A DNA stretch of 64,000 bases. Origin: Bacteroidota bacterium. Its GTDB lineage: Bacteria > Bacteroidota > Ignavibacteria > SZUA-365. The stretch's first letter is position 1, and the number at the start of each line of letters is the position of its first letter. Below the pieces are notes generated by a model. The model had not been told where the DNA came from, did no database searches, and was given only the letters and a program-made list of their open reading frames with translations. The position numbers and the translations under genes were made by a program. Where the stretch lies: NCBI GenBank assembly GCA_035362335.1, contig DAOSDL010000005.1, positions 12,708 to 76,707 on the forward strand, written 5' to 3'. Shown one piece after another: positions 323 through 21,601 of the stretch.

Positions 323-1711
323 TCACATGCCCGCGTCATCGGCGAAGGGCGGGAGCGTTGCGGTGATGAGACGGCGTGCAGCGTCGAGATCGATATCTTC
401 GATGCGCGCGACGCCCTCGGTGAGTTGTTCGAGTATGCGCTGTTGCAGCAATCCCCGCCGCAGCGCGGTGGCATAGGGCAACAGATGGAAGGAGACCATC
501 GAATACATGGGCACGAAATAGTCGGGAAAATGCCGCTCCAGCACGAGACCGGCGCGCTTCATGAAGAGGAAGCGCGGGTCGGCGACGAGGTCGCGCATTT
601 CAATGAAATTCCGCAGTGCCATGTCCGCGATGGCGTCGGCATTGTCCTTGCGGCGATGCTGCACCTCGGCGAAGACGCGCGCCCAGTCGGCGCCGTGCCG
701 TTCGATGGCGTGGTCCAACGCCACGCAATCCTCGAAGGCGCAGTTCATTCCCTGCCCGAAGAACGGCACGATGGCGTGCGCGGCATCGCCCAGCAGCAGG
801 GCCTTGCCTTCCGCATGCCAACGGTCCACGCGCACAGTGCCCAGATGTCCGGTGGGATTGGCGAAAAACTCCTCCTCCAGTTGCGGCATCAAGGCGAGCG
901 CGTCGGGGAAGTACTGCGCGAAGAAGCTCCGTACGGTCGCCGCGTCGCGCAAGCTGTCGAAGGAGGTGTCGCCCTCACGTTGGAGAAACAGCGTGCAGGT
1001 GAAGGTACGGTCGGGATTGGGCAGGGCGATCATCATGAACGAGCTGCGCGGCCAGATGTGCAGCACATCCGCTTCCATGCGGAACGCACCGTCGGGTCCG
1101 GGATGAATGGTCAGCTCCTTGTACCCGTGCTCGAGCATGTCCTGCGTACACCGATGCCCGCCGCGTCGCAGCATGGCGTCGCGCAGCGCGGAGGCGGCGC
1201 CGTCGGTGCCGATCACGGTTGCTCCCGACACGTGCTGTTGTTCGCCGCTGCGCTCGTCCACGAACAGTGCGCCGCATGCGTCCACATCCACATCCTCGCA
1301 GCGCTGCGAGAAATGCAGGGCCACGGACGGCAGCGCTTCCGCGGCGCTCAACAGGCGCTTGTTCAATTCCGCGCGCGACACAGAGTGAATCACCTCCTCG
1401 GGCCGCTGACCGTAGGGTTGGAAGGTGCGTGTACCGTCCACCGCGTGCATCATGCGTCCACGCATGGGAATGGCGATGGAGAGAATGTCGCGGTCGAGCC
1501 CCACGCGCGCCAGTGCGTCGATACCGCGCGCCGACAGCGCGAGATTGATGGAGCGTCCCGCGCCTGGCGTGCCGCCACGAGGGTCGGGTCGCCGCTCGAA
1601 GGCCCGCACGGCGATGCCTCGGCGCGCAAGGAACACGGCGAGCAGCGAGCCGGCCAGGCCCGCGCCGATCAGGGTCACCGGTGCATGCTGCGTCATTCCG
1701 TTTGTCTCCAT
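323..1711 (-). CDS. kmo: Kynurenine 3-monooxygenase (FAD-dependent)
   Basis: 462 aa. N-terminal FAD GxGxxG motif (IGAGLAGSLLAVFLARRG). Conserved GDAAHAIVPFFGQGMNCAFEDC flavin-monooxygenase motif typical of KMO. Sits 16 nt upstream of kynA on the same strand. Confidence 0.88.
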   Translation of the reverse strand: METNGMTQHAPVTLIGAGLAGSLLAVFLARRGIAVRAFERRPDPRGGTPGAGRSINLALSARGIDALARVGLDRDILSIAIPMRGRMMHAVDGTRTFQPYGQRPEEVIHSVSRAELNKRLLSAAEALPSVALHFSQRCEDVDVDACGALFVDERSGEQQHVSGATVIGTDGAASALRDAMLRRGGHRCTQDMLEHGYKELTIHPGPDGAFRMEADVLHIWPRSSFMMIALPNPDRTFTCTLFLQREGDTSFDSLRDAATVRSFFAQYFPDALALMPQLEEEFFANPTGHLGTVRVDRWHAEGKALLLGDAAHAIVPFFGQGMNCAFEDCVALDHAIERHGADWARVFAEVQHRRKDNADAIADMALRNFIEMRDLVADPRFLFMKRAGLVLERHFPDYFVPMYSMVSFHLLPYATALRRGLLQQRILEQLTEGVARIEDIDLDAARRLITATLPPFADDAGM

Positions 1712-1732
1712 AGTTCTCTCATCCCGGCCATA

Positions 1733-3031
1733 TTACACGGCGCTATCGCGCCAGAAGGTGTGAAAGGCGTCCGCCAGGCGCCACACATCCTCGAAGGTGT
1801 TGTACATCGGTACCGGTGCGGCGCGTATCACATCGGGCTCGCGCCAGTCGCAGACAATGCCCTGCCGGTGCAGATGGTCGAAGCAGGCGCGGCCGCGTTC
1901 GTGCAGGCGGATGGAAAGCTGGCATCCCCGCTGTTCCGGATCGGCGGGTGTGATAATCGACCAGGTGTCGCGCTGCCCGGCGCGCAGGAGTTGTTCGAGC
2001 CAGCCGGTGAGGCGCAGGCTTTTCGCGCGCAGCGCGGGCATGCCCGCTTCCTCGAACAGCGCCAGCGAAGCGCGCAACGCGGCCATGGGCAGCACGGCCG
2101 GATTACTCAACTGCCACCCGTCGGCGCCCGGGGCGGGCATGAATTGCCGTGGCATGGCAAAACGCGTGGCGGGGTCGTGCCCCCACCAGCCGCTGAAGCG
2201 GGGGAGGTCCGGCGCATGCTCATGCCGCGCGTGCACGAAACATGCGGCTGTGCCGCCGGGGCCGGAGTTGAGGTATTTGTACGAACACCACACCGCGAAG
2301 TCCGCATTCCATTCGTGCAGGTGCAGGGGAACATTGCCCGCCGCATGGGCCAGATCGAGGCCGGCCACCATACCTGCCGCATGCGCCGCGTCGATCAGAG
2401 CGGGAATGTCGAACAACTGTCCGTTGTAATAATTCACACCGCCCAGCAACAGCATCGCCGCCTCGTCGCGATACAGATGGATGAGGTCCAGCGCACGCTG
2501 CCTGTCGAAGAGTCCATCCTCGCTGAGGGGAAGCTCGATCAGATCGTGCTCCGGATCGCAGCCGTGAAAGCGCAACTGCGACATCACCGCGTATTGGTCG
2601 GAGGGAAAGGCCTTTTCCTCGATGATGATTTTCCGCCGGCGGCCTTCGGGACGGTAGAAGGAAACGAGCAGCAAATGCAGATTCACCGTCAACGTGTTCA
2701 TCGCCACCACCTCCGAGGGCAGCGCGCCCACAATGCGCGCCAGCGGTGCGGCGACCTCCTCGTGCGTGCGCATCCACGGATGCGGGCCGTCGAAATGTCC
2801 GTCCACGGCCAGGCGCGCCCAGGTGTCGAGCTCGGTGAGAAGCTCAGCTTCGGTTGCCCGGGGTTGCAGGCCGAGAGAGTTGCCGCTGAAATAGGCGATC
2901 TCGCGTCCCTCCGCATCCAGCGGAACGTGGAAGCGCGGACGAAGCGTGGGAAAGGCGTCGCCGTGGTCGAGCATGCGGGCGTGTTCGAGCGTGGCGGTCG
3001 CGTGCGATGAATACGTGGGCGGTGCTGTCAT
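1733..3031 (-). CDS. kynU: Kynureninase (PLP-dependent)
   Basis: The track ORF 1733..3844 carries a spurious N-terminal extension. The real start is MTAPPTYSS at 3031, preceded by a GGAG ribosome-binding site. Kynureninase-like motifs are present, including SYKYLNSGPGG. The start overlaps the upstream gene stop as ATGA (3028-3031). Confidence 0.88.
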   Translation of the reverse strand: MTAPPTYSSHATATLEHARMLDHGDAFPTLRPRFHVPLDAEGREIAYFSGNSLGLQPRATEAELLTELDTWARLAVDGHFDGPHPWMRTHEEVAAPLARIVGALPSEVVAMNTLTVNLHLLLVSFYRPEGRRRKIIIEEKAFPSDQYAVMSQLRFHGCDPEHDLIELPLSEDGLFDRQRALDLIHLYRDEAAMLLLGGVNYYNGQLFDIPALIDAAHAAGMVAGLDLAHAAGNVPLHLHEWNADFAVWCSYKYLNSGPGGTAACFVHARHEHAPDLPRFSGWWGHDPATRFAMPRQFMPAPGADGWQLSNPAVLPMAALRASLALFEEAGMPALRAKSLRLTGWLEQLLRAGQRDTWSIITPADPEQRGCQLSIRLHERGRACFDHLHRQGIVCDWREPDVIRAAPVPMYNTFEDVWRLADAFHTFWRDSAV

Positions 3032-3849
3032 TGCTCCGGAGAAATGGGGTAGAGAATCGGACGGCTGGGTGTCGCATCGGAGACGAACGCGGCAATCTGC
3101 AAGTTGAGCAAATAACGGCCATCCGGTACATGATCCGGAATATAGACCATTTCCGTGATGGTGCGAAGCCGGGGCGCGCCAACGGCGACGCGCTGCTGAC
3201 CGACGGGCATTTGCCAGAACGCGTGATGCGCGAGCATCTCGCCGCCATCGTCGTCGCGGTCCAGCGATGGCACATCCACCAGCAGATGGCGCACGTCGCG
3301 TTCGACAAGGCATTGCACCGCCTCCACAGTGAAATACGGTGCGCGTTGCCGCGTGTAATGGCGCGTGCGCTTGCTCTCGGGATTGGGCAGCGTGCGAATG
3401 ATCACGGCCTGGCCGAAGGAAATGTCCTGCGACTCCAGCGCGTGCCGCAACGCGGTGGCCGTGATCAGCGTGTCGTCGGATGTGGCGTTGTGCGCGGCGC
3501 TTTCGTGCGAGGCGGCGGCGGGCACCAGCACGGCGCTGACGAGTGTCGCCGGAATGAGCGAGCCAGGCAACACATCGGTGACGGGGATGCGCTCGACGGT
3601 GAGATGCCCGACGCATTCGGTGTGCGTGCCGTTGCAATGCGGCGTGAGAACGAGGGTTTCGACGTTGCAGCTCCCGCCGAGACGGGTGTCGCCCACGAGC
3701 GATCCCGCGCGCAACGCCTCGGCATGCGCGTCCGCAACACCGTAGGCGTTGGGTTGCGCGCCGTGGAAGTCGAGCGGGATGGCGATGCTGATGCCGGCAT
3801 CGAGGTCGGCATCGAATCGCGCCTGGCCGATGGTGATGGTGCAAATCAT
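3028..3849 (-). CDS. Cyclase-family protein, putative kynurenine formamidase (divergent KynB-like)
   Basis: 273 aa. Cyclase-family hallmarks are TPHCNGTHTECVGH (a variant of HxGTHxDxPxH), LLVDVPSLDRDDDG, and a C-terminal PDGRYLLNLQ region. ATGA overlaps at both ends (3846-3849 and 3028-3031). Lies inside the kynurenine operon. Confidence 0.6.
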   Translation of the reverse strand: MICTITIGQARFDADLDAGISIAIPLDFHGAQPNAYGVADAHAEALRAGSLVGDTRLGGSCNVETLVLTPHCNGTHTECVGHLTVERIPVTDVLPGSLIPATLVSAVLVPAAASHESAAHNATSDDTLITATALRHALESQDISFGQAVIIRTLPNPESKRTRHYTRQRAPYFTVEAVQCLVERDVRHLLVDVPSLDRDDDGGEMLAHHAFWQMPVGQQRVAVGAPRLRTITEMVYIPDHVPDGRYLLNLQIAAFVSDATPSRPILYPISPEQ

Positions 3850-4862
3850 CGGATAAAACGCTCCTTGGTTAAGCCGAGCCAGTGGAGGGCGTTCTCGCCA
3901 AGCAACTTTTGCTTGACGGTGTTCGGAAGTTCATCCATGGATTCGATCAATGCGCCCGGAATGGCCTCGCCCAGAGGGAAGGGATAGTCCGAGCCGAGGG
4001 TGACGCGGTCTTCGCCCACGAGATCGATGATGTAGCGCAACATCACCGCGTCGTGCACGAGCGAATCGAGCCAGAAGCGCCCGAGGTAGGCGCGCGGCTG
4101 CACGGGGTTGTCGATGGCCACCAGGTCGGGCCGCACGTTGAAGCCGTGCTCAATGCGCCCGAGTGTTGCGGGGAAGGAGCCGCCGCCATGCGCGAAATTC
4201 ACGCGCAGACGGGGCAGGCGCTCGAGCACGCCGCCGAAAATCATCGAGCAAATCGCGAGCGAGGTTTCGGCCGGCATGGCCACCAGCCAGGGCAGCCAGT
4301 AGCGCTGCATGCGGTCGCGCCCCATCATGTCCCAGGGATGCACAAACACAGCGGCGCCCAGTTCCTGCGCCGCTTCGAAAAAGGGAAACAGTGCGGGTTC
4401 GTTGAGATTCCAGTCGTTGACATGCGTGCCGATTTCCACACCGGCCAGGCCGAGTTCCTTCACCGCGCGTTCGAGTTCGCGAATGGCGAGCGCGGGATCC
4501 TGCAAGGGCACGGTGCCGAGTCCCACGAAGCGCTGTGGATGCCCCGCCACCGTGGCCGCGATGTGATCGTTGAGATAGCGGGACAGATCATGACCGTGCT
4601 CGGGCTTGGCCCAGTAGCTGAACATCACGGGCACGGTGGACAACACCTGCACGTGTACTCCATGCGTGTCGCATTCGCCGATGCGCACGGCGGGATCCCA
4701 GGAATTCGGATGAAAGGTGCGGAAATGCTTGCAGTCCACGAACATGTCGGCCGCACCGTCGTCGCGCCGCTGCAACGCGGGGAAGCCGCCATACCCGTAG
4801 CGCTCGGCCAGATCGGGCCAGGACGGCGGGAGTATGTGAGTGTGTACGTCGACTTTCAGCAT
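3846..4862 (-). CDS. 2-amino-3-carboxymuconate-6-semialdehyde decarboxylase (ACMSD, amidohydrolase-2 family)
   Basis: 338 aa. Long stretches match ACMSD as I recall it from metazoan/Pseudomonas enzymes: MLKVDVHTHILPPSWPDL, STVPVMFSYWAKPE, YWLPWLVAMPAETSLAICSMIFGGV, FAHGGGSFP, LGSDYPFPLGE. Ribosome-binding site TGAGGA upstream of the ATG at 4862. Confidence 0.9.
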   Translation of the reverse strand: MLKVDVHTHILPPSWPDLAERYGYGGFPALQRRDDGAADMFVDCKHFRTFHPNSWDPAVRIGECDTHGVHVQVLSTVPVMFSYWAKPEHGHDLSRYLNDHIAATVAGHPQRFVGLGTVPLQDPALAIRELERAVKELGLAGVEIGTHVNDWNLNEPALFPFFEAAQELGAAVFVHPWDMMGRDRMQRYWLPWLVAMPAETSLAICSMIFGGVLERLPRLRVNFAHGGGSFPATLGRIEHGFNVRPDLVAIDNPVQPRAYLGRFWLDSLVHDAVMLRYIIDLVGEDRVTLGSDYPFPLGEAIPGALIESMDELPNTVKQKLLGENALHWLGLTKERFIR

Positions 4863-4937
4863 GCGTCCTCAGGTACTCGTTACAGGCGTGCGGGGAGTGC
4901 TTGGAAACGGGACCGGGCGGATGGCCGCGGCGAGCCC

Positions 4938-5462
4938 TCAGCGCGCGGGCACGGGCGCTTCCATCACCGCGCCGCATTGGCTGCAACGGCGCAGTTGTTC
5001 GGAGCCATAAAAACGCTCCATGATGGGTGGAAACTGCGTGACGATGTTTTCCAGCGTGAAATACTCCTCGTGCAACGGAGCATTGCATTGCTCGCAAAAC
5101 CAGAGAAATCCGTCCTGTTCACCCTCGCGGCGCTTGCGTTCGATTACCAGGCCCACGGTATTGGCCGGCCGTTGCGGCGAATGCGGCACGCGGGCGGGGA
5201 GGAGGAAGATCTCGCCCGGCCGCAGCTTCACCGCGCGACGCTCGCCATCCACGATGAGATGCAGCGTGATCTCGCCTTCGATTTGATAGAAAAACTCCTC
5301 GCCCTCGTTGTAATGGTAGTCCTTGCGGGCGTTGGGTCCGCCCACAATCATGACGATGAACTCCGCATTCTCGAACACCTGCAAGTTGCCCACCGGGGGT
5401 TTGAGCAAGTGGCGGTGTTCTTCTATCCATTGTTGAAGGTTGATGCCCTGTGATGTATACAT
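4938..5462 (-). CDS. 3-hydroxyanthranilate 3,4-dioxygenase (cupin)
   Basis: 174 aa. The cupin core (PNARKDYHYNEGEEFFYQIEGEITLHL) and the C-terminal Cys-rich rubredoxin-like segment (CEQC...CSQCG) are typical of HAAO/NbaC. Confidence 0.88.
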   Translation of the reverse strand: MYTSQGINLQQWIEEHRHLLKPPVGNLQVFENAEFIVMIVGGPNARKDYHYNEGEEFFYQIEGEITLHLIVDGERRAVKLRPGEIFLLPARVPHSPQRPANTVGLVIERKRREGEQDGFLWFCEQCNAPLHEEYFTLENIVTQFPPIMERFYGSEQLRRCSQCGAVMEAPVPAR

Positions 5463-5472
5463 GCGAACCTCG

Positions 5473-5886
5473 TCAAATCGTGGCGATACATTTCAACTCG
5501 ATGGCGATGGGGGTGGGGAGCGAGAGCACCTCCACGGTGGTGCGGCAGGGCCGGTTGTCCCGGAAATACTCCGCGTACACGCGGTTGAAGGTGGCGAAAT
5601 CCTTTTTCATGTCGGTGAGGAACACCGTCACATCCACAAGATTTTCCCAGGCCGCGCCGGCGTCCTCCAGCACGGCGCGCACATTGCGGAACACGCTGTG
5701 GCATTGCCGCTCGAAATCGTAGCTGATGACGCGGCCGTCCGCATCCACTTCCACGCCGGGCACGTCGTCGACGCCGCGTTCGCGCGGACCGATGCCCGAG
5801 AGAAACAGCAGATTGCCCACGCGACGCGCGTGCGGGTACAGGCCCACGGGCTCGGGAGCGGAGGAGGAGTGGATTTCCTCGTTCAT
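5473..5886 (-). CDS. RidA/YjgF-family protein, likely 2-aminomuconate deaminase
   Basis: RidA fold motifs are present (FLSGIGP, TVFLTDM, VEVLSLP). The ATG at 5886 overlaps the upstream ALDH stop as ATGA (5883-5886). The track start at 5910 is a GTG that lies upstream of this. Confidence 0.72.
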   Translation of the reverse strand: MNEEIHSSSAPEPVGLYPHARRVGNLLFLSGIGPRERGVDDVPGVEVDADGRVISYDFERQCHSVFRNVRAVLEDAGAAWENLVDVTVFLTDMKKDFATFNRVYAEYFRDNRPCRTTVEVLSLPTPIAIELKCIATI

Positions 5887-7397
5887 GGCGATGTTCCCAG
5901 ATGGATGCACACGTTGGTGGGTTCGGTGAAAAAGCGCAGCGCTTCCCAGCCGCCTTCGCGTCCGATGCCGCTCTGCTTCACGCCGCCGAAGGGCGTACGC
6001 AAATCACGCAGCATCCAGCAATTCACCCACACGATGCCCGCCTCCAGCGCGCCGGCAACGCGATGGGCGCGGAGCAGATCGCGCGTCCACAGCGACGCGG
6101 CGAGTCCGTAGGGCGTGGAGTTGGCGATGGCCAGCGCCTCTTCCTCGCTGTCGAAGGGCAGCAGCGTGACCACGGGACCGAAGATCTCTTCCTGATTCGT
6201 GCGGCACTGCGCCGACAGGCCGTCGATCACGGCGGGCGTGAGGAAGGCGCCACCGGCACAGCGGCCATCGGGCACGATGCGCTCACCGCCGCACAGCACC
6301 GTGCCACCCTCCTCGCGGGCAAGCTGCACATAGCTCAGGACTTTGTGGAGATGTTCCTCCGAAACCAAGGCGCCGATGCGCGTGTCGGGGTCCAGGGGAT
6401 CGCCCACACGCAGAGCGCGCACCTCGTCCACGAAGCGCGCGCGGAAGCGGTCGTACAAGCCGCGTTGCACGAGGATGCGCGAACCGCAAAGGCAGATTTC
6501 GCCCTGATTCGAGAAGGCCGAGCGCACGATGGTGGGCAGGATATCCTCCAGATCCACATCGTCGAAGACGATGGTGGGATTCTTGCCTCCCAGCTCCAGC
6601 GAGAGCTTTTTGAACATCGGCGCCGCCGTCGCGGCGATGGAGGCGCCGGTGCGCGTGCCGCCGGTAAAGGAAATAGCCGGCACATCCGGATGCGCGCAGA
6701 GGGGAGCGCCGACGTCCGCGCCGCGTCCATGCACGATGTTGAGCACGCCGGCGGGCAATCCGGCCTCGATGCACAGCTCCGCGAAGCGACCGGCGGTGAG
6801 CGGCGTCAATTCCGAGGGCTTGGCCACAACGCAACTGCCGGCGGCCAGCGCCGGGGCGATTTTCCAGGTGAAGAGGTACAGCGGCAGATTCCATGGTGAA
6901 ATGCAGGCCGCCACGGGTATGGGACGACGCAGCGTGTAGTTCAACGCCAGCGTATCGCTATGATGCGCCTCGTCGTGGTCGTGGAGAATGGCGGTGGCAA
7001 AAAATCGCAGATTGCGGGCCGCGCGCGGAATGTCCACCGTGCGCGCGAGCGTGAGCGGCTTGCCGTTGTCGCGCGATTCCAGCGCGGCGAGTTCTTCCAG
7101 ATGTTCTTCGACCAGGGTGGCGAGGCGCAGCAACAGCCGCGAACGCTGTTCCGCCGGTGTCGTGGCCCAGTGCCGTGCCTGTTGCGCCGCGCGGACGGCG
7201 GCGTCCACATCGCGGGCGTCGGATGCGGCCGCCATGGCGATGGTCGCGCCCGTCGCCGGCTCCAGCACGGGCAGCCAGTCGCCGCCTTCCGGATCCACCA
7301 ATGCGCCGCCGATGTAATTGCGAATGTAGTGCATGTCGTGCATCATGCGGACGCTTTCGCGACTGCGTTGCGCGCCGCCTGCTTTCTTTTGTGTCAT
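5883..7397 (-). CDS. NAD-dependent aldehyde dehydrogenase, likely 2-aminomuconate-6-semialdehyde dehydrogenase
   Basis: 504 aa. ALDH motifs present: ELGGKNP, FSNQGEICLCGSRILV, FGGVKQSGIGREGG. It is the first gene of the kynurenine operon. The N-terminus is uncertain (ATG at 7397 with no RBS, or an internal MM at about 7346). Confidence 0.85.
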   Translation of the reverse strand: MTQKKAGGAQRSRESVRMMHDMHYIRNYIGGALVDPEGGDWLPVLEPATGATIAMAAASDARDVDAAVRAAQQARHWATTPAEQRSRLLLRLATLVEEHLEELAALESRDNGKPLTLARTVDIPRAARNLRFFATAILHDHDEAHHSDTLALNYTLRRPIPVAACISPWNLPLYLFTWKIAPALAAGSCVVAKPSELTPLTAGRFAELCIEAGLPAGVLNIVHGRGADVGAPLCAHPDVPAISFTGGTRTGASIAATAAPMFKKLSLELGGKNPTIVFDDVDLEDILPTIVRSAFSNQGEICLCGSRILVQRGLYDRFRARFVDEVRALRVGDPLDPDTRIGALVSEEHLHKVLSYVQLAREEGGTVLCGGERIVPDGRCAGGAFLTPAVIDGLSAQCRTNQEEIFGPVVTLLPFDSEEEALAIANSTPYGLAASLWTRDLLRAHRVAGALEAGIVWVNCWMLRDLRTPFGGVKQSGIGREGGWEALRFFTEPTNVCIHLGTSP

Positions 7398-7600
7398 GAG
7401 AAATGAACAATCTCAAAATACACGACATGGCGAAAATCGCAAGCGTACGGGACGGATGAGGTCGCGGCATGTACTTCGCGATGCTACGGACTCCGTGGAG
7501 ATTGAATTCAAGCTCAAAACCACAGTCATTCATGTTCCTTCGTCACACCCGGGAGAATGAAAATGGTGCGGAGATTGGATTATTCGGATTCGACACGGTT

Positions 7601-8071
7601 TTAAAACCACGGATTTCGCAGATTATCCACAGATTAGCACAGATTATTCGTGGAAGTCCACAAGGATCCGAGCAGTAGCCGCAAGGAAAGCAATCCAACA
7701 CCTGTTGTCGAAAGTGACGCGAAACACGCGTACATTGCCTGCTGGGACAGCGGTGGTGCGGGTTGACTCCCGGCTACTACCGTCAAACTTTACTCTTTAC
7801 TCTTCACTCTTTACTCATCACCGCGCAGAAGCGCATGATGCAGGCAGCGACACTATTTTCAGAGCAGATTGCACGGATTGCACACAGATTAGCATAGATT
7901 ATTCGTGGAAGTCGGCGAGGTGCCGGGCGAATCGTCGCAGATGAAGCGATCAGACGCCCGCTGACAGCAGTGATGCGAATCGGCGTTTATTGCCTGCGGT
8001 GCCGGCGGGAGTACGGGTTGGCTCCTGCGACTACCGTCAAACTTTACTCTTTACTCTTCACTCTTTACTCA
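7601..8071. repeat. Imperfect tandem duplication (2 x about 215-245 bp) in a 700-bp ORF-free, AT-richer spacer
   Basis: Copy 1 is about 7601-7817 and copy 2 about 7861-8071. They share a near-identical head (cagattagcaYagattattcgtggaagtc) and an identical 41-bp tail (ctaccgtcaaactttactctttactcttcactctttactca). The tail on the other strand reads as four GAGTRAA heptads. An exact TTATCCACA sits at 7623-7631. Confidence 0.6.
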
Positions 8072-8109
8072 ACGCATCACTGCGCAACCGACATGCCGAT
8101 GCGGCAGGG

Positions 8110-8562
8110 TCACGAAATGAAGCGGATGCTCAGCGGGTAGCGATAGGCCTCGCCGCGGTAGCTGCGCACGGACGCCACGATGACGAGGACGAGATTGGTG
8201 ATGCCGAGCGCGATCATCAGCAACAGCGAGAGACCGGCCGTGACCCCGAGTCCGAACACGCTCTCCTGCACGGCTGCCGACAGCATGCCGGTGACAAACA
8301 CCACCATCAGCACGATGAAGTAGATGGTCATGCTGATCTGGAAATTCATGGATTCCTTGCCCTGATCGTTCACCAGCGGCATCTCATCCTTTTTCATCAA
8401 CCACACGGTGAGCGGACCGAAAATGTGACCGAAGGGAACGATCACCGATGCGAATGTGGACAGGTGGCAGAGCATGCCCCAGGTGTGGATTTGATCTTCG
8501 CGCATGCGTGCCAACTGTGCGGCGACATCCTGCGTCGCTTGTTCCTGCGTGCCGTCGTTCAT
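8110..8562 (-). CDS. Small membrane protein (DUF4870-like)
   Basis: 150 aa with about 3-4 hydrophobic helices. ATG at 8562. Confidence 0.55.
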   Translation of the reverse strand: MNDGTQEQATQDVAAQLARMREDQIHTWGMLCHLSTFASVIVPFGHIFGPLTVWLMKKDEMPLVNDQGKESMNFQISMTIYFIVLMVVFVTGMLSAAVQESVFGLGVTAGLSLLLMIALGITNLVLVIVASVRSYRGEAYRYPLSIRFIS

Positions 8563-8635
8563 GTCGATCTCCTTGTGCTATGTGAATTGCTGCCGCTTCC
8601 GAGCGTCAGTGCGGTCGAAGCGCCCGCGTGCATCG

Positions 8636-9379
8636 TCACGTTGCCACAGCATCGCTGTTCGCCATCACGTCAATCCAGGAGCGCACAATGGCCTCGAGTC
8701 CGTCCCGCCGTGGCAGTCCATCCGCGTCATTCAATCGTGTGATGTCGCCGTTGCGCAGCAGCTGCCGCACGCCCTCGACATTGGCCCAATAGTAGAATCC
8801 CCACTGTTCGAGACTCCAACGCGGATCATAGCCATTGACTTCGTAGTCAACATAGGTGAGCGCGCCATTGTGTACAACCATGTTCGCCGGAAACCAGTCG
8901 AGATTGTAGCCCGCTTCGCGGCAACGCCGCGAAAGGGAGAGCAGTTGGAGGATGATGTCACGCTCCGGAAGGCCGTCGGCCACGAGCCGCAGGCCGTCGA
9001 TGCCATCCACCCATTCCTTGAGCAGCGTGCCCCGCTCGTGATCCACATGCAGCAGACGCGGAAGCGGCACGCCGATGCGGAGCAAGGTTGCGTAATCGCG
9101 CTGCTCGGCAATGGTTTTTGCTTCATGAAAGGTGTAATACGGGCAGGGTTCGTCGTGCATGACTTTGAGCACGAAGCGGGCGCCGCCTTCCTCCACCAGC
9201 CAGGAAAGCGCGGATTTGCCCTTACCGAGCGCGCGCAGGAGTGTGAGTCGATGCGGGCCGCAGGAGAGTGTCATGCCGGCCGCGCATGCATCGGCCACAT
9301 TGTATTCCGGAGAAGGGGAGGGTGTTTCCTGCGCTGCGTCGCTCATGGCATTCAGGGAATGTGTATGTTGGGTGTACAT
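8636..9379 (-). CDS. Small protein-kinase-like-fold protein (Kdo/RIO/LPS-kinase-like, atypical)
   Basis: 247 aa. Gly-rich loop LGKGKSA, then VLKV (lysine), LLKEWVDG hinge, a catalytic-loop-like DWFPANMVV (D...N) and a DFG-like YVDYE. An alternative start is MSDAAQ at about 9346. Confidence 0.5.
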   Translation of the reverse strand: MYTQHTHSLNAMSDAAQETPSPSPEYNVADACAAGMTLSCGPHRLTLLRALGKGKSALSWLVEEGGARFVLKVMHDEPCPYYTFHEAKTIAEQRDYATLLRIGVPLPRLLHVDHERGTLLKEWVDGIDGLRLVADGLPERDIILQLLSLSRRCREAGYNLDWFPANMVVHNGALTYVDYEVNGYDPRWSLEQWGFYYWANVEGVRQLLRNGDITRLNDADGLPRRDGLEAIVRSWIDVMANSDAVAT

Positions 9380-20808: not shown

Positions 20809-21257
20809 GCTTCCGCCTCCATGCTCAGACTGTGTTCGCGTTGCTGCAATTGCCGCAGCGCCTCGGCGATGGCGTCGCTGTTGTACTGCTCCATGAAGGC
20901 ATGGGTCGCGGTGCGCGTGGCCGCAAGCAGATTGGGAATGAAGGAGGTGGGGAAATGCCGATGCGTGAGAAAATTCCGCAGCCAATCGAGATACTCGATC
21001 AGCGCGGCGGGCAATTGGTACTTCATGGTGGCCTGGAGATTTTCCACAAAAATCTTGGCGCACTCCCTTGCAAGACGCGCGCGCTCGGGATCGGCGATGA
21101 GATCGCGAAACGCCTCGTTGCACTCCAGCCTGTCGATCACGGCGGAGAGAATTTTTTCCTTCTGCTTCTGAAACTCCTCGACATCCGGCGCCGCGATCGC
21201 GCCAAAGGAGATGGGCTCGGCTACTGCTTCCATAACGAATCGCCCGAATGTGAACAA
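20805..21257 (-). CDS. Hypothetical all-helical protein, translationally coupled to the downstream B12-binding protein
   Basis: 142-150 aa. TTG at 21257 or ATG at 21233 (MEAVAEP...). Its stop overlaps the B12-protein start by 4 nt (20805-20808). No recognisable domain. Confidence 0.45.
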   Translation of the reverse strand: MFTFGRFVMEAVAEPISFGAIAAPDVEEFQKQKEKILSAVIDRLECNEAFRDLIADPERARLARECAKIFVENLQATMKYQLPAALIEYLDWLRNFLTHRHFPTSFIPNLLAATRTATHAFMEQYNSDAIAEALRQLQQREHSLSMEAEA

Positions 21258-21601
21258 TGAATGCTTGAGAACAACATGCGTCCCGAGTGGAAAGTTTCAC
21301 AGTTCTTCCGTGAAAATGGTATGGGTGCGATGATGTGCAACGGAGCGGATTTGACAGAGGGGGAAAACCACAGATAGCACGGATTTCACACGGATTTTCA
21401 CAGATGAATCGGAGAAGGGTGCGCGGGCAGCGGTTACTTTTCACCATTTTTCCTTTTGCCTCGTGATTGCGTGGTAGCATCGCGGCATCGCGATTATCCA
21501 AACCGGCGGGGCCCATTATCCACGGGGACTTCGTATATTAGTACATCCACGCCTTTTTATCGCGCGGATATCACGAAGTACTCATCGAAACAGAGATCAG
21601 C

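Follow-up and report, generated by a model that had tools for sequence, protein, structure and literature searches.

An intergenic spacer upstream of an ALDH operon in an uncultured Bacteroidota bacterium is best read as copies of a modular, dispersed, non-coding repeat

Results

The Spacer and Its Flanking Genes

Positions 7398-8109 of the window (the whole 64-kb stretch of DNA that was analyzed) form a spacer between two open reading frames, 5883-7397 and 8110-8562. The former matches Pfam Aldedh (E = 2e-167) and lies on the minus strand, as does the latter, a DUF4870 gene whose stop codon adjoins the spacer. With its two neighbors read from the same strand, the spacer is bordered by co-directional genes and not by divergent ones: it lies 5′ of the ALDH start and 3′ of the DUF4870 stop. 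A preliminary description of this DNA had raised the possibility of a long structured leader serving a divergent gene at 8562, which must be abandoned because that gene, being encoded on the minus strand, has its 3′ end and not its start at the spacer.

The same description portrayed the region as free of credible ORFs and AT-richer than its surroundings, and both statements are borne out. The GC content is 0.49-0.55 within the spacer compared with 0.63-0.71 in the flanks. The ORFs inside it are short (44-79 aa), and a 250-aa frame (7990-8742) begins in the spacer and continues antisense into the DUF4870 gene. Every reading frame is disrupted by single-base indels between the copies and subfamilies of the repeat described below, which rules out a conserved ORF.

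The ALDH ORF comprises 504 aa, but the PGAP call is 483 aa and homologues cover only 95% of the ORF, indicating that the true start is probably the ATG at 7334 and not 7397. The N-terminal extension of ~21 aa is missing in homologues. Upstream of the gene, the minus strand carries the box GTGTATTTTG (7423 to 7414), and the form TGTATyTTy is kept upstream of ALDH in four relatives (L131 and L134-L136); judged by this motif, the box is probably a Bacteroidota −7 promoter box. The minus-strand operon at 1733-7397 corresponds to the 3-hydroxyanthranilate/kynurenine branch of tryptophan catabolism (ALDH, RidA-like, 3-HAO, ACMSD-type amidohydrolase, cyclase, and kynureninase), and its order beside rpsD and DUF4870 is conserved in all relatives fetched.

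A repeat search revealed two direct copies in the spacer, offset by 254-255 bp, with ∼76% identity overall across 228 nt. The heads of the two copies are 79% identical over 62 nt and the tails 96% identical over 48 nt. The duplication reported previously is thus confirmed, as is the head motif, which has exactly two exact occurrences; the identical tail, however, is 42 nt long (7776-7817 = 8030-8071) and not 41. Each tail contains four CTTYACT heptads, as had been proposed, in the order CTTTACT, CTTTACT, CTTCACT, CTTTACT (7788-7816 and 8042-8070; TRF period 7, 4.1 copies), an array for which no chance matches are expected. The unit had been delimited too narrowly, the full element spanning 7516-7875 and a second, partial copy reaching ∼8087.

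Modular Organization of the Repeat

Profiles for three modules, designated L, H, and B, matched the window in the order L-H-B-H-B over 7517-8066. Module H is generally ∼55 nt long and consists of three to five CAGATTnnCA iterons spaced ∼10 bp apart, followed by TCGTGGAAGTC. Module B, of ∼155 nt, terminates in ACTACCGTCAAA and the heptads.

The segment nearest to ALDH (7398-7506, minus strand) is the ancestral upstream region of the operon, as it aligns base for base with L131/L132, a relative that does not have the insertion. On the plus strand there follows module L (7516-7604; ∼88 nt; nhmmer E = 4e-25), which runs AAAACCACAGTC...GGGAGAATGAAAATGGTGCGG...CACGGTTTT. The first H copy (7601-7658; H profile E = 5e-20; TRF period 10, 2.7 copies) opens with AAAACCACGG, continues with the iterons GATTTCG-CAGATTATCCA-CAGATTAGCA-CAGAT, and closes with TATTCGTGGAAGTC. 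It leads into the first B copy (7657-7816; ∼155 nt; B profile E = 3e-44), whose heptads occupy 7788-7816, and then into a post-tail segment, ATCACCGCGCAGAAGCGCATGATGCAGGCAGCGACACTATTTTCAGAG (7817-7864, plus strand), that is kept after the tail in most copies of the family. This segment carries an inverted match to L, in which 11 nt at 7851-7861 are 91% complementary to 7558-7568.

The second H copy (7865-7914, plus strand; E = 3e-15) is the window H most like the solo H of relative L131 in a 53-nt alignment. The second B copy (7912-8071, plus strand; E = 7e-50; heptads 8042-8070) is of the subfamily B type, shares 88-90% identity with type-B copies elsewhere, and does not have the post-tail segment. 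The remainder of the spacer, TGCGCAACCGAYATG...GGTCACGAAATGAAG (8072-8109, plus strand), is a flank common to the relative, as established by alignment, and runs into the DUF4870 stop codon.

A solo H (GAAAACCACAGATAGCACGGATTTCACACGGATTTTCACAGATGAATCGG) is present elsewhere in the window at 21364-21417 (plus strand; H profile E = 1.9e-12). It lies in a divergent spacer (21234-21601) bordered by a 142-aa ORF/B12-binding-domain gene on one side and by citrate lyase genes on the other. Two DnaA-box-like 9-mers, each matching at 8 of 9 positions, are found 80-100 nt beyond this solo H (21494 and 21516).

Dispersal of the Repeat in the Genome

When metagenomes were scanned with the tail 20-mer ACTACCGTCAAACTTTACTC, 25 stretches were obtained, on many contigs from the same samples, and 23 of the 25 carry the element. 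Judged by their flanks, these represent ∼23 places within contigs of the same MAG (a minimum of 15 sites between genes), a count that is approximate because contigs assembled from metagenomes can be chimeric at repeats (L143, L160, and L161). In these three stretches, left and right element flanks are shared in mixed combinations, a pattern that points either to chimeric assembly at the repeat or to genuine recombination among the copies.

The flanking proteins at six other loci have HOJ0xxxx accessions and the label 'Bacteroidota bacterium', and an exact protein look-up identified the window proteins as HOJ03113-HOJ03116, 'MAG TPA ... [Bacteroidota bacterium]'. The shared accession series and label place these copies and the window in one genome. 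The unit therefore occurs at many loci of the same genome, with unrelated flanks, and belongs to a repeat-element family, a reading that the preliminary description did not contain.

Comparison of the copies by BLAST and nhmmer showed that they share a span corresponding to 7516-7875 of the window, and at more than 10 loci the 5′ edge of this span is sharply defined by AAAACCACAGTC, next to unrelated flanks. The three-module profile search showed that module order and orientation are constant at all loci, L(1-3)-H-B-post-tail-H(-B). The number of modules varies: L is present in one to three tandem copies at other loci, solo H modules also occur, and the numbers of B-H units and heptads differ among copies. 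All copies examined are intergenic, many of them between convergent genes, and no ORF is preserved across them.

A stretch of 271 nt covering H and B is identical at five flank-defined loci, and the genome also contains subfamilies that are 77-90% identical. The window copies represent two different subfamilies, and each has closer relatives at other loci of the genome than its neighbor in the spacer. Conservation is ∼90% in H and the tail compared with ∼77% in the middle of B, although the figure for the tail is inflated in part by ascertainment, since the copies were found via the tail 20-mer. This pattern hints at a constraint on H and the tail that selfish DNA alone does not explain.

Many metagenome contigs terminate within the element. 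Among ten contigs that encode an identical DUF4870 protein, a single one reads across the whole spacer, and those of the rest that extend into it stop there. A BLAST search of plasmids and phages in distant mode gave no match to the element, and a scan of viral contigs with the tail 20-mer gave only two chance matches, in low-GC phage coding DNA.

The ALDH Locus in Relatives

In relative L131/L132, the ALDH protein is 97% identical and the gene order is the same, but the spacer is 208 bp long. It keeps the ALDH-proximal 110 bp and the DUF4870-proximal flank, with a solo H between them. Relatives at ∼75% ALDH identity have spacers of 45-140 bp with no trace of a module. The presence or absence of the element at the ALDH locus thus differs between close relatives, and the short spacers, with a solo H or no module, indicate that ∼500 bp of the window spacer is lineage-specific. 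The solo H of the relative fits either deletion by H-H recombination or insertion into an H site.

Ends of the Element and Neighboring Genes

No terminal inverted repeats were found, there being no inverted match between the ends AAAACCACAGTC... and ...CAGAGCAGAT(+iterons), which carry direct CACAG/iteron repeats. Likewise, no consistent direct repeat attributable to target-site duplication was present in the flanks of 17 copies, and Pfam searches revealed no transposase, integrase, or recombinase beside the copies inspected (the L158 island, L149, and L147).

Heptad Tracts in Other Genomes

Members of the family have four or five heptad units, mostly in the T/T/C/T order. When a genome collection was scanned with three degenerate CTTYACT units, at least 120 loci/genomes from many phyla were returned. 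The matches listed are generic (CTTCACT)n arrays that otherwise have nothing in common with the element. The hosts among the matches listed include Bacteroidota, Planctomycetota, Acidobacteriota, Gemmatimonadota, Clostridia, and others, and the arrays listed (L011-L130) often have an inverted (AGTGAAG)n 40-60 nt upstream, giving long hairpins. Heptanucleotide tracts are reported to be the commonest simple repeats of 5-11 nt in prokaryotes and have been ascribed to slippage (PMC4679880).

Discussion

The spacer is best read as one complete and one partial copy of a ∼360-bp non-coding, modular, dispersed repeat. The element is probably a selfish, non-autonomous mosaic, analogous to BOX/BIME/MITE elements, whose copies would expand and contract when H modules recombine and the heptads slip. 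The family would spread as selfish, non-autonomous DNA, with the H iterons, and perhaps the conserved tail, serving as sites for a mobilizing or recombining protein. Unequal or deleting recombination between H modules would then generate tandem B-H units and solo H modules, as occurs with solo LTRs, and replication slippage may account for changes in heptad tract length. At the ALDH locus the insertion would lie at least 110 bp upstream of an intact ALDH promoter region and would probably be near-neutral for the neighbors, including the ALDH operon with its intact proximal promoter region.

Several known systems resemble the family by description. The BOX elements of Streptococcus pneumoniae have the structure boxA-boxB(n)-boxC. 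Like the enterobacterial BIME/REP mosaics, they are short non-coding sequences, present between genes in many copies per genome and composed of few modules in a fixed order and variable number; such elements encode no transposase of their own and usually have small or incidental effects on their neighbors. Fixed module order, variable number, intergenic position, and high copy number are shared by the present family, the likeness being one of description and not of homology. The modules here are, however, larger (88, 55, and 155 nt), and they include an array of ∼10-bp iterons and a module with a heptanucleotide tract at its end; predictions give no strong palindrome or stable hairpin, and the host is a high-GC uncultured Bacteroidota.

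The element also resembles a MITE, being ∼360 bp long, non-coding, multi-copy, dispersed, and intergenic, with near-identical copies that suggest recent spread and with presence/absence differences between close relatives. It differs from a MITE in its ends, which show only an 11-nt subterminal inverted match in place of terminal inverted repeats, no target-site duplication (17 copies), and direct CACAG/iteron repeats; no parent IS was identified, and no transposase lies beside the copies checked. The H-B-H arrangement, together with the orthologous solo H of the relative, reproduces the direct-repeat recombination pattern of solo LTRs and att-flanked arrays, although no integrase or retroelement was seen here and the unit is only ∼255 bp.

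A further comparison is with heptanucleotide simple sequence repeats. The cyanobacterial STRR sequences are heptamer repeats. Long simple sequence repeats of heptanucleotides in prokaryotes (Mrazek et al., 2007) and TAACTGA repeats are summarized in PMC4679880. Common features are head-to-tail intergenic heptamers of variable copy number, relatives with the same gene order and no repeats, and contigs that break at the tract. The tract described here differs in being short (four to five units) and embedded in a larger conserved element, in keeping its T/T/C/T variant order in most copies, and in not lying just upstream of start codons.

The likeliest of the alternatives, although an unlikely one, is that the H-B units are multi-copy small RNA genes, with B as the RNA and a promoter in H or in the upstream segment. 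The C/U-rich heptad tail or its purine-rich complement would then serve either as a seed or to sponge up a protein that binds heptamers. The greater conservation of the tail and H relative to the middle of B would suit such a gene, as would the proposal that heptamer repeats are binding sites for S1, Csp, or CsrA-type proteins (PMC4679880). Some features of folding point the same way: two compensated pairs in one short stem (columns 106/152 and 108/150) separate subfamilies A and B, a stem is GTAGCCG/CGGCTAC in one window copy and GTCGCAG/CTGCGAC in the other when compared by eye, and folding is slightly better for the plus than for the minus strand. The RNAalifold energies on the two strands (−16.7 and −12.3 kcal/mol over 280 columns) are nevertheless weak, the z-scores of minimum free energy (−1.4 to +1.9) are non-significant, and covariation in a 16-sequence alignment was not above that of shuffled controls. 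A long-range stem that appeared doubly compensated between the window copies was rejected, as it is broken in the commonest B subfamily, and the hairpin that follows the tail has uncompensated changes.

Rfam 15 gave no match on 7200-8300 even at E ≤ 10, and none at gathering thresholds in the whole window; the tRNA/tmRNA scan also found none. No sigma-70-type promoter or intrinsic terminator was detected by a scan that does not model Bacteroidota promoters, and manual inspection revealed no convincing conserved sigma-54 site or Bacteroidota −33/−7 boxes and no positionally conserved Bacteroidota TAnnTTTG box. No complementary target was found within the 64 kb. The duplicated small RNA gene proposed in the preliminary description therefore finds no backing from Rfam, promoter, terminator, fold significance, or covariation.

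Next, and at a low probability, the two parts with high conservation, the H iterons and the tail ACTACCGTCAAA(CTTYACT)4 with its fixed T/T/C/T order, may not be neutral: they may be sites recognized by an undescribed mobilization or recombination system that uses direct iterons in place of inverted ends, or the tail may be an RNA or single-stranded DNA platform for a heptamer-binding protein.

It is more doubtful still that the H iterons constitute a transcription-factor operator or activator array for adjacent operons, including that of ALDH and the kynurenine branch, with L and B as passengers. The suggestion of iterated regulator-binding sites holds as a description of H, since three to five CAGATTnnCA repeats ∼10 bp apart do exist. 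Their 9-11-bp spacing would place sites on one helix face. The factor could be, e.g., of the OmpR/PhoB type, which binds direct repeats ∼10-11 bp apart. Moreover, the relative keeps H alone ∼110-180 bp upstream of ALDH, and the solo H at 21364-21417 occupies a promoter region between divergent genes, where its distance from the leftward ORF is comparable (∼130 bp). Against a regulatory role, most H modules are located between convergent genes or after stop codons, and their orientation to the downstream gene is not constant. In addition, relatives at 75% ALDH identity keep the operon without H, and the neighboring genes have no functional theme.

Neutral tandem duplication confined to this spacer would explain two adjacent copies with a period of 254-255 bp, but it is very improbable given that the H-B unit is also found next to unrelated flanks at many other loci and that the window copies come from different subfamilies with closer relatives elsewhere. 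There is next to no chance that the spacer is a replication origin or DnaA-regulated site, an idea prompted by the iterons, the lower GC content, and the exact 9-mer TTATCCACA that was correctly located at 7623-7631, within the first H copy, and is the sole perfect DnaA 9-mer of the window: it is a single box, absent from type-B H copies and missing from most other H copies, no AT-rich unwinding element and no nearby dnaA or dnaN was found, GC skew is positive throughout the window with no switch, and the element is multi-copy. Judged by the junction CAGATTATCCACAGATT, at which it is created, the box is a by-product of two abutting iterons.

Read as a selfish mosaic repeat, the element accounts both for the anomalous spacer and for the breaks found there in metagenome assemblies of this bacterium. 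It also provides a caution, as a DnaA box or tandem copies of this kind can be misread as an origin or a small RNA locus. The family adds a previously undescribed modular repeat to a phylum in which few such elements have been catalogued. If the iteron and heptad modules are protein-recognition sites, they could, speculatively, lead to a mobilization mechanism that is free of inverted repeats.

Two further observations were made among the stretches examined. In L158, an island of ∼7 kb (722-7811) with a GC content of ∼50%, compared with ∼62% for the genome, lies between two complete, directly oriented elements; the ORFs of the island include an HTH_31 protein, an ion-transport/RCK channel, and several with no Pfam match. 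In L149, four tandem 144-bp units (8744-9266) carry CTTYACT as inverted arrays around a 42-nt loop, with the potential to form 24-bp hairpins, and represent a second repeat family of the genome that reuses the heptad motif.
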